A program made the translations under genes and the position numbers. The notes below the pieces were generated by a model. That model was not told the DNA's origin. It searched no databases and saw only the letters and a list, made by a program, of their open reading frames with translations. Positions 6,937 to 44,062 of a stretch of DNA of 64,000 nucleotides are shown in pieces. Every line of letters starts with the position of its first letter. Positions within the stretch are counted from its first letter, which is position 1. Source of the DNA: a virus; the UHGV virus genome UHGV-0134778, one strand, 5' to 3'.

Positions 6937-7914
6937 TTATTTGTTAGATTCTGCACGTGCACGAGCAAGTGCTTTTGCAACGTTTTCAGCAAGAATTTCT
7001 TCTGCGGATTTTGCAATATCATCCACAACAGGTTCGCCATCATTACCATGTTCAGTGGTGGCAAACTCTTCTTTGGTTTTATGCACCTCTGCTTCCAGCT
7101 CTTCAATTTTGGCTTGAGCTTTCTCCAGCATAGCTACAATAGGTTCGTTAGCTTTTTCCAGCATGAAGTCAACCAGGGTTGCATGATCTTCTTCACCAAC
7201 AAAGCTTAAAGCTTGAGCTTTAGCCAGCATTTTAGCTTTTTCAACTTCAACCTGGGCCTTGATGATTTCTTCAGCTTTACTCTGGGTTGCTTTCAGCTCT
7301 TCTACTTGCTTCAGCAGATCCAGATACTCTTTAGTTTTGGTTACGTCCACCGGATTCTCCTCGGTATTTGCGGATTTTGCAACATCATCCACCTCGGTAG
7401 TTTTATCCACCTCAGTAGGTTCCTGTACCGCCTTGATCAGGTTCCCTTCTTTATCGAAGAGATCAGCGGTTACTTGTTCAAAAATCTGTTGTGTTTTTAA
7501 CAGACTGTACTGATCTACCACACTAAGCTGCTTGCCTTCTTTTGCAGCTTTATGAATGGTCACGTTATCACAACGCTCTTCCAGCCATGCAATGCAAGAC
7601 TCTGCGTCAGCTTGTGCCCATTCCCAATCAGGATGCTCTTTAGCCCAAGCTTCCTCTTCAATCTCAAAACCAAGCATGTGTGCAAGTGCTTTGGCATCAT
7701 CATACCACATATCGAAGAAACGACGCAGGTATTCTTCAAAACTCAGCTCCACAGTAACTTGGCGAAGTGCCTTAACAATATCGTCTGTTAACTGCTCAGG
7801 CTGAAGATCACTCTTCATCAAAAGAGATACAGGTCTGTTGTTAGCGCTATAGCCTTGCGCCTTATGGCACAGGGCAATCCCCTTCTCTTTAATAGTAATC
7901 GTTTTTTCAGACAT
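6937..7914 (-). CDS. putative scaffolding protein
   Basis: 325 aa, strongly Glu/Lys/Ala-rich with heptad-like coiled-coil character; sits between protease and capsid genes. Confidence 0.5.
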   Translation of the reverse strand: MSEKTITIKEKGIALCHKAQGYSANNRPVSLLMKSDLQPEQLTDDIVKALRQVTVELSFEEYLRRFFDMWYDDAKALAHMLGFEIEEEAWAKEHPDWEWAQADAESCIAWLEERCDNVTIHKAAKEGKQLSVVDQYSLLKTQQIFEQVTADLFDKEGNLIKAVQEPTEVDKTTEVDDVAKSANTEENPVDVTKTKEYLDLLKQVEELKATQSKAEEIIKAQVEVEKAKMLAKAQALSFVGEEDHATLVDFMLEKANEPIVAMLEKAQAKIEELEAEVHKTKEEFATTEHGNDGEPVVDDIAKSAEEILAENVAKALARARAESNK

Positions 7915-8345
7915 TATTCATTGCCCTCTTCTACAACACTGATCCCGAAGTTTACGTTGGTAATTTCACCAGTTTCTTCATCAACATTACCTGTTGCCTG
8001 AATGCTTAGGCCACCAACAATGCCAGCCTTCTTAGCTTCCCATAATTCAGGATTATTGTATTTAACTTTAGCAACCCAAGAGCCAGCCTTGATGACCTGC
8101 TCAGTGCCAATTACTACAACATCAAACTCTTCTTGAATCCACGTCTTTTCAATGGTGAAAGCATCTGTGGAGGTCAAGTGGAAAAGGTTTTCAGAAACTA
8201 GGCCTGCGGCGTATGCTGCGTCCCAATTATCTTTAGCCTTTTTGATGGTGTCTTTACTCATCCACTCACCGTGAGCATCTTTAGTGTCAGGTTCGTAGAT
8301 GATTTCGTAGGAAATCATTTCTTCCTGTGGCATCTTATTCCCCAT
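7914..8345 (-). CDS. putative prohead protease (XkdF-like, S78 family)
   Basis: Segment YEIIYEPDTKDAHGEWMSKDTIKKAKDNW resembles the conserved N-terminal region of XkdF-type phage proteases; lies between portal and scaffold; start trimmed to ATG after the portal stop. Confidence 0.5.
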   Translation of the reverse strand: MGNKMPQEEMISYEIIYEPDTKDAHGEWMSKDTIKKAKDNWDAAYAAGLVSENLFHLTSTDAFTIEKTWIQEEFDVVVIGTEQVIKAGSWVAKVKYNNPELWEAKKAGIVGGLSIQATGNVDEETGEITNVNFGISVVEEGNE

Positions 8346-42583: not shown

Positions 42584-42612
42584 TTGACAAATAGGTAAGC
42601 TTTAGATATTAT
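42584..42612 (+). promoter_or_regulatory. sigma70-like promoter
   Basis: TTGACA-N17-TATTAT; preceded by hairpin GGGTGG-ttatt-CCACCC at ~42547-42565. Confidence 0.55.
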
Positions 42613-42640: not shown

Positions 42641-42952
42641 ATGGCTACAATACAAGAGAAACTGAATAAAATATACTGCCTGTTTGTCTATAACGGCGAG
42701 ACAATTTTGGCAAATAAGGGATCCAAGAATGTGTGGACCAAGGACAGCGGTGGTAATATAATTAACTTAGCGTTGCTACGTGAGCGCCGACACAGATTCT
42801 TTATCGAGTCTCGAATTATTGAAAGCAGCACTTGCTACAGAACAGGCGATAAAGTAATTGTTGACAATGATACGTGGTATGTGGTAGACTGGCAATCATT
42901 GAGCTGTGATGCTTCTGACAATCGTAAGTATTCCATAGTGATTGCTAAATAA
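42641..42952 (+). CDS. hypothetical protein
   Basis: 103-aa ORF. Confidence 0.45.
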   Translation: MATIQEKLNKIYCLFVYNGETILANKGSKNVWTKDSGGNIINLALLRERRHRFFIESRIIESSTCYRTGDKVIVDNDTWYVVDWQSLSCDASDNRKYSIVIAK

Positions 42953-43012
42953 AGGTAAATGTGAATCAGGTTTAAATAAATAGCTTTCAACTTCCAATAT
43001 TAAGGATTTCTC

Positions 43013-44062
43013 ATGAATTTAACACCTCGCAGAACCATGGTACACGGCATGAAAGAAAAACAGAACGGTTTCGAACCTATGAGTAATAAAATGTTTGGTA
43101 TGCCGGGCGGTATCATGGAAACATACAGCTACCCAACACCTGTTGTTGACCACGTTCTTTATATCGACGATTTGGAAGACTTACAAGACCATATGTCTCG
43201 TCTGCAGACGATCCGTATGGCTCAGCCGGAAGAAAGCATTCGGGTGATCATCAATAGCCCTGGGGGTTGCGTGCACATTGCAATGGCTTATCTGCAGGCA
43301 TTCCGAGAGTCTCAGGCAAGCGTTGTCGTACACGCTGAAGGGATGTGCTGCTCAGCAGGAACAATCTTATGGCTGGGTTGCAAAGAACGCACTGTGGCTC
43401 CGGACACAGAATTTATGTTCCACTACTATCAAGGTGGCACTTATGGTAACGGTGTGAACATGAATACTCAGGTCAGCTACTGGAAAAAACGTTTTGAACG
43501 CCTGATTGAAAAATACTACGGTGGGGTGCTGACAGAAGATGAGATCGCATCCATCACAGCTGGCGGTGAAGTGTGGTTGGATGGAGAAGAGCTGGCATCT
43601 AGAACTGGTGCTATCATCTTGGACGATGAAAACATTCAGCGCATTCAGAATGGACAGAAACCGAAAAAGCTTTTGGCAAAAAGAGATGAAGAAGGTGTGT
43701 TAGGTGAGGCAGGCCTTCCAGAGATTCACCAATGCACATCTTTGGACGAGCTGGTTCATGCTGTTGAGTCTGCAAAAGAAAATGGTATGAAAGGTGATGT
43801 TCACACTGTGTTCCTGAATCTACAGATGGAGAGTGGTGAGACCGTTAAGATTGCACTAGGTGAGATTACCTCGGAAGATCTGCAGCGATTCTCTGTGGTA
43901 GAGCTTCAGGACATTTTGTCCCAATTGAAAACTACCCTGAACGGAGGTGAAGAAGTTCAGGTGAAAGATAAGACTCGCAAGCGTCTGGTGGACAATATTA
44001 TTAAAACAGCAAAAGAGCTTAATGAAAAAATCCTGGGCGCAGGAATTGTCGAAGAAGCTTAA
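43013..44062 (+). CDS. ClpP-like serine protease with ~140-aa C-terminal extension
   Basis: ClpP/S14-like core: IINSPGG, active-site-like GMCCSAG, conserved His and Asp positions (FMFHYYQGG; EVWLDGEE). Confidence 0.6.
   Translation: MNLTPRRTMVHGMKEKQNGFEPMSNKMFGMPGGIMETYSYPTPVVDHVLYIDDLEDLQDHMSRLQTIRMAQPEESIRVIINSPGGCVHIAMAYLQAFRESQASVVVHAEGMCCSAGTILWLGCKERTVAPDTEFMFHYYQGGTYGNGVNMNTQVSYWKKRFERLIEKYYGGVLTEDEIASITAGGEVWLDGEELASRTGAIILDDENIQRIQNGQKPKKLLAKRDEEGVLGEAGLPEIHQCTSLDELVHAVESAKENGMKGDVHTVFLNLQMESGETVKIALGEITSEDLQRFSVVELQDILSQLKTTLNGGEEVQVKDKTRKRLVDNIIKTAKELNEKILGAGIVEEA

Follow-up and report, generated by a model that had tools for sequence, protein, structure and literature searches.

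Does a ClpP-like protein encoded far from the head genes of a phage serve as a prohead protease, as the core of an ATP-dependent Clp machine, or in some other capacity? The question is raised by a gene in the 64,000-nucleotide stretch of viral DNA analysed here (the window), which belongs to an rV5-like E. coli phage. The reading frame picked out in an earlier note proved to be a real plus-strand gene (Table 1), and Met23, considered as an alternative start, was rejected since AAGGA precedes the annotated ATG and Met23 lacks a Shine-Dalgarno sequence. The gene is not a new one but is found in existing catalogues: over 100 genomes of Vequintavirus carry gp122 under the annotation 'ClpP-like/ATP-dependent protease', and the PHROG 5410 profile ('ATP-dependent protease') matched the full length of the protein, C-terminal domain included (E=5.6e-155; residues 24-345 against profile positions 4-322 of 323). 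A search for functional literature on phage ClpP or HslV homologs found none.

Table 1. Features of the ClpP-like locus and its context, as positions in the window
Feature	Position	Strand	Remarks
ClpP-fold peptidase gene	43013..44062	+	349 aa; rV5 gp122 ortholog; PHROG 5410
Shine-Dalgarno-like AAGGA	43002..43006	+	sequence reading; 6-nt spacer to ATG of ClpP-like gene
N-terminal region (residues 1-44)	43013..43144	+	predicted disordered; pLDDT <50 for residues 1-40
ClpP-fold catalytic core (residues 45-212)	43145..43648	+	Pfam, model, Foldseek, alignment
Ser114	43352-43354	+	nucleophile position in GMCCSAG
His137	43421-43423	+	ClpP catalytic His position
Glu186	43568-43570	+	position of ClpP Asp171
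Linker (residues 213-243)	43649..43741	+	flexible, variable; pLDDT <50 for residues 222-241
Family-private C-terminal domain (residues 244-343)	43742..44041	+	helix, beta-hairpin, short helix, two long helices
Small upstream ORF	42641..42952	+	103 aa; rV5 gp121 homolog; PHROG 5456
Sigma-70-type promoter-like site	42584..42612	+	TTGACA-17-TATTAT, 11/12; consensus match; intergenic, 5' of small ORF/ClpP-like pair
XkdF/S78_2-type protease (context, outside the feature)	7914..8345	-	PF14550, E=5e-18
Scaffold-like gene	6937-7914		adjoins XkdF/S78_2-type protease gene

Assignment of the core to the ClpP fold was supported by several searches. Of the two Pfam families put forward in the earlier note, CLP_protease (PF00574) matched above its cutoff (E=7.8e-13; 49.1 bits vs 20.2), and Peptidase_S49 (lambda gpC/SppA type, MEROPS S49) gave no match at E<=1; an invariant His occupies the ClpP His position, as opposed to the Ser-Lys dyad of the S49 type. 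The AF2 model, in which the core has a pLDDT of ~90 and residues 150-169 form a long handle-like helix, was matched by Foldseek to E. coli, S. aureus and human ClpP (TM ~0.7, E ~1e-9). The hallmarks INSPGG (residues 80-85), GMCCSAG (residues 110-116) and His137 were found as first described, but the 'conserved Asp' listed with them was not: in an alignment of 29 family members Ser114, His137 and the oxyanion Gly85 are invariant, and the Asp171 position is Glu186 in the present phage and Gln in 24 of the 29. More distant phage ClpP-like proteins encoded outside head modules have Asp or Glu there. Glu may stand in for Asp, and Gln, which cannot serve as the acid, could mean low activity in most relatives. 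We predict that the protein is a ClpP-fold serine peptidase capable of catalysis, employing Ser114 and His137 with Glu186 in the place of Asp.

Both ends of the protein depart from ClpP. The N-terminal region contains a family-conserved F28-G29 and Y40-P41 motif, and in the model a Pro-rich stretch takes the place of ClpP helix A. The C-terminal extension of ~140 residues, already noticed in the first reading, is indeed present beyond a core ending near residue 212, and F293, E297 and R322 of its folded part are invariant. A profile search of 1.84e9 representatives with this part returned only family members or their fragments and one spurious LRR protein; by this comparison of sequences, residues 244-343 are an orphan domain limited to the gp122 family. 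Assignment of the domain to the HeH, SAP or Rho_N helix-extended-loop-helix types was rejected, with no significant profile or fold match. No homology was detected when the extensions of rV5-type, ICP1 and H101 proteins were compared with one another.

If the protein worked as ClpP does, it should dock to an unfoldase. According to established work on ClpP, residues L48, Y60, F82, I90, M92, F112 and L114 of the E. coli protein make up the hydrophobic pocket at the apical face in which the IGF/LGF loops of ClpX, ClpA and ClpC are bound. Sequence alignment together with the monomer model placed Q65, R77, E99, H107, E109, T127 and A129 at these positions in the present phage; the family shows no variation at the first six, and position 129 is Ala or Ser. 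Alignment revealed the same loss in the CR3, ICP1, H101, KVP40-like, Pakpunavirus and Klebsiella phage homologs. The ClpP equivalog model TIGR00493 gave 32.9 bits, about a tenth of its cutoff of 308.6. Because the protein fails this cutoff, the 'ATP-dependent' label is unsupported, and because the docking pocket is gone as well, scores and alignment alike indicate that the 'ClpP paralog' of the earlier note does not hold if a functional, ATP-dependent Clp core is meant. Most likely, the protein is no partner of the host ClpX/ClpA motors.

A host motor might still be engaged in another way, with the gp122-type protein serving as a substitute proteolytic core: it would seize one of the host's AAA+ unfoldases (ClpX, ClpA or other) through a non-canonical interface and redirect ATP-dependent degradation to substrates chosen by the phage. 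Such a role is implied by the database name 'ATP-dependent protease subunit', and would suit a ClpP fold with its handle helix and a conserved N-terminal motif located where ClpP has axial loops. The invariant polar cluster Q65/R77/E99/H107/E109/T127 is moreover a surface whose conservation calls for some binding partner, and the corresponding slot of phi92-like phages (see below) is occupied by a subunit of the HslV type, which in cells requires HslU. We nevertheless consider hijacking rather unlikely, since all the hydrophobic residues of the IGF/ADEP pocket have gone, here and in every related phage lineage, helix A is replaced, the N-terminus is predicted to be disordered, the equivalog score is so low, and no phage-encoded unfoldase gene was seen beside the ClpP-like gene.

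The genomic neighbourhood bears on the other classical role. As the earlier note had it, the gene is found on the plus strand in the company of metabolic genes (NrdAB, NrdDG, PhoH, methyltransferase), ~35 kb from the head module. The order NrdAB…PhoH–small ORF–ClpP-like–methyltransferase is found in DrSchubert/rV5 and in CR3 (Certrevirus), NrdAB…PhoH–ORFs–ClpP-like in ICP1, and PhoH–ORF–ClpP-like…methyltransferase in Pseudoalteromonas phage H101, so that synteny with PhoH and nucleotide metabolism is kept in four distant phage groups. In Pakpunavirus the gene lies amid dCMP deaminase and ligase genes, and in a KVP40-like phage between frd and uvsX; the argument from the latter presumes a T4-type gp21 prohead protease there. 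Portal, scaffold or MCP genes were adjacent in none of the seven lineages inspected (the present phage, Certrevirus, ICP1, H101, KVP40-like, Pakpunavirus and a Klebsiella phage). For H101 and the Klebsiella phage, the homologs are annotated as 'head maturation protease', which was set aside as automatic labelling, both genes being outside head modules. By alignment and gene order, the gp122-type proteins are a phage-specific clade of ClpP-fold peptidases kept outside the head module.

The small upstream ORF, which has no Pfam match, and the ClpP-like gene are probably co-transcribed. Promoter function of the site 5' of the pair is inferred from its consensus match, promoter-like sites in the region being not above expectation (12 vs 9.0±2.6 in shuffles). 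A small ORF also separates PhoH from the peptidase gene in ICP1, H101, CR3 and PaulScherrer, and no mutual homology was detectable among these ORFs. Published transcription data on ICP1 place gp211, its ClpP-like protein, in the 'Middle-late' class together with PhoH; the capsid operon (ICP1 gp122-126), in which gp125 is the predicted procapsid protease, is robustly transcribed late. Middle-late expression would still be in time for assembly, a point that counts against the reading we prefer.

The head module of the present phage contains a protease of its own. The XkdF-like candidate beside the scaffold, pointed out in the earlier note, was borne out by its Pfam match and by the adjoining scaffold-like gene, and its DxHG, NLxH and GLSI motifs are invariant in comparison with PaulScherrer and with the ICP1 gp125 'capsid protease'. 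A search of the PDB for sequence relatives of this protein found none. We regard this ORF as likely the better prohead-protease candidate. Prohead proteases often depart from the capsid and the rV5 and CB7 virion proteomes are shallow, both of which weigh against the reading preferred here. Mass spectrometry of CB7 virions (26 proteins) detected CB7_5, the homolog of the XkdF-like protease, and the scaffold-like CB7_6; the ClpP-like protein that CB7 encodes was not detected, and gp122 is not listed among the 19 proteins of rV5 virions. In virions the MCP of rV5 retains its N-terminus, with a peptide beginning at residue 5; N-terminal sequencing of the capsid protein, proposed in the earlier note, would therefore be uninformative, and the scaffold is the protease substrate to watch.

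Could the gp122-type protein be the real prohead protease all the same, or a second one, its C-terminal domain targeting it to the procapsid and scaffold being digested as in lambda gpC/Nu3? The best-scoring curated model is a ClpP-related head-maturation one (NF045542), although its 62.1 bits are below the cutoff of 120; further head-maturation matches were NF045540, PHROG 1684 (E=1e-23) and PHROGs 94, 2976 and 133. In sequence the protein resembles these phage proteases (62 bits) more closely than it does cellular ClpP, and the gp122 clade probably descends from prohead proteases. These top matches count against our preferred reading, as does the model of lambda, in which a gpE-like MCP is paired with a ClpP-superfamily protease; the MCP of the present phage is lambda gpE-like by Pfam. 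Prohead proteases are also expected to lack an unfoldase pocket, C-terminal extensions of such length typify encapsidation or scaffold-like tails, and the timing in ICP1 is compatible. We judge this role quite unlikely nonetheless, in view of the failed cutoff, the gene positions in all seven lineages, the intact XkdF/S78 protease in the head module with its homolog in CB7 virions, and the absence of the gp122/ClpP-like protein from the two lists of virion proteins. A scaffold-like capsid-targeting tail was rejected as well: in BLASTP the C-terminal domain had no similarity to the phage's own scaffold (best E=0.39).

A further argument came from PaulScherrer, a phi92-like phage with an orthologous head module (portal 41%, XkdF-like protease 41.5%, MCP 43%). 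A six-frame HMM search of its genome detected no ClpP-like sequence (best E=1.2 vs 1.4e-145 for the control), and this phage matures its head without such a gene. Synteny, ICP1 timing, the XkdF homolog in CB7 virions and PaulScherrer together lend comparative support to the original view of a stand-alone enzyme other than the prohead protease, and the gp122-type protein is most likely not a capsid-maturation enzyme.

In PaulScherrer, the slot PhoH–ORF–X–ORF–methyltransferase is filled by an HslV/proteasome-type peptidase, bas60_0204 (PF00227, 24.4 bits vs cutoff 22.4; N-terminal MTT). Among E. coli phages we counted 219 XkdF-like, 107 HslV-like and 119 ClpP-like proteins, the last two being roughly complementary. 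A tail common to the ClpP-like and HslV-like proteins was considered and rejected (BLASTP E=0.23; hhalign 19 columns, E=0.037, probability 1.4%), and hhalign with the long-tail subset gave no match. A tentative possibility, which we rate as improbable while keeping it in view, is that large lytic myoviruses of the rV5/phi92/ICP1 type maintain a 'chambered peptidase slot' beside PhoH, ClpP-like in Vequintavirinae, ICP1 and H101 and HslV-like in Stephanstirmvirinae, each with its own C-terminal tail. The slot would be a module independent of host unfoldases, perhaps working with the PhoH ATPase or the small upstream ORF, that remodels the host or early-phage proteome or disarms protease-dependent defence in mid-infection.

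Phages do target host proteases, as T4 PinA does Lon, and a ClpP-fold protein whose docking surface has changed, expressed ahead of the late genes from a host-type promoter-like site, might act as an anti-defence decoy that interferes with host proteolysis, for instance by co-assembling with or capping host ClpP rings and so blunting ClpXP/ClpAP-dependent antitoxin turnover and abortive-infection triggers; but strictly invariant Ser114, His137 and oxyanion Gly favour real catalysis, ~20% identity to E. coli ClpP makes mixed rings unlikely, and an HslV-type enzyme in the slot of sister phages fits a common catalytic role better than ClpP-specific poisoning, so that we hold this to be very improbable.

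On balance we lean, with some reservation, towards the gp122-type protein being an unfoldase-independent chambered serine peptidase that acts in the cytoplasm in mid-infection and has no part in prohead maturation. It would probably be transcribed with the small upstream ORF from the sigma-70-like promoter, as part of the nucleotide-metabolism/replication block, and probably in the middle to middle-late period. Its fold, in which the handle helix is still present, suggests that it would most likely assemble into a ClpP-like ring chamber. This chamber would do its work independently of ClpX/ClpA, the AAA+ unfoldases of the host, because the IGF-loop pocket is now made of invariant polar residues, and the private C-terminal domain, carried on a flexible linker of ~30 residues, could recognize substrates or partners. 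Host or early-phage proteins and peptides would thus be degraded in the cytoplasm during infection, and prohead maturation would be left to the XkdF/S78-type protease of the head module.

The labels 'ATP-dependent Clp protease subunit' and, occasionally, 'head maturation protease' carried by these genes in many of the phage genomes that have them annotated are probably both wrong. Should the protein prove to be a cytoplasmic peptidase that is self-sufficient, and interchangeable with an HslV type in the one slot, then phage-directed proteolysis in mid-infection, bulk or targeted, is a conserved and selected function. It would span several families of therapeutic-candidate coliphages as well as ICP1, has barely been studied, and could touch the takeover of the host, the recycling of amino acids or the evasion of toxin-antitoxin defences that proteases trigger.

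Compared with known systems, the gp122-type protein shares with bacterial ClpP (E. coli ClpP; MEROPS S14; TIGR00493) the alpha/beta fold, the INSPGG oxyanion loop, Ser in G-x-x-x-S-x-G and His in M-x-H at matching positions, and the long handle-like helix. It differs in Glu (Gln in relatives) for Asp171, absence of the Arg170 'sensor', polar residues for all hydrophobic residues of the IGF-loop pocket, remodelled helix A and N-terminal loops, and an added 140-aa C-terminal linker and domain. ClpP-related head-maturation proteases (NF045542, NF045540, lambda gpC type) are likewise phage-encoded, not expected to have an unfoldase pocket and frequently extended at the C-terminus; in contrast, the gp122-type gene lies outside head modules, scores below the cutoff, coexists with a second protease in the head, is transcribed with nucleotide-metabolism genes in ICP1 and is dispensable for the orthologous head of phi92-like phages. 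Proteases of the XkdF/HK97-type S78 group are also phage serine proteases, and both kinds are encoded in the present genome, but the XkdF type belongs to another fold and family (PF14550), with its gene between portal and scaffold and a homolog in CB7 virions.

ICP1 gp211, H101 gp124 and CR3_205 (PHROGs 5410/1827; 326, 351 and 307 aa) share with the present protein a homologous core (36% identity and E=3e-28 for ICP1), PhoH-linked synteny, retention of Ser and His, loss of the pocket and a long C-terminal extension. ICP1 differs in having a true Asp at the triad position, and the extensions of ICP1 and H101 have no detectable homology to that of the present phage. Finally, phi92 gp058 and PaulScherrer bas60_0204 have in common with it the slot PhoH–ORF–X–ORF–N6A-methyltransferase in phages whose head modules are orthologous, a chambered-peptidase fold with a C-terminal extension and a roughly complementary distribution; they differ in an unrelated fold, that of an Ntn-hydrolase with a Thr1 nucleophile, and in a tail whose similarity is not significant.

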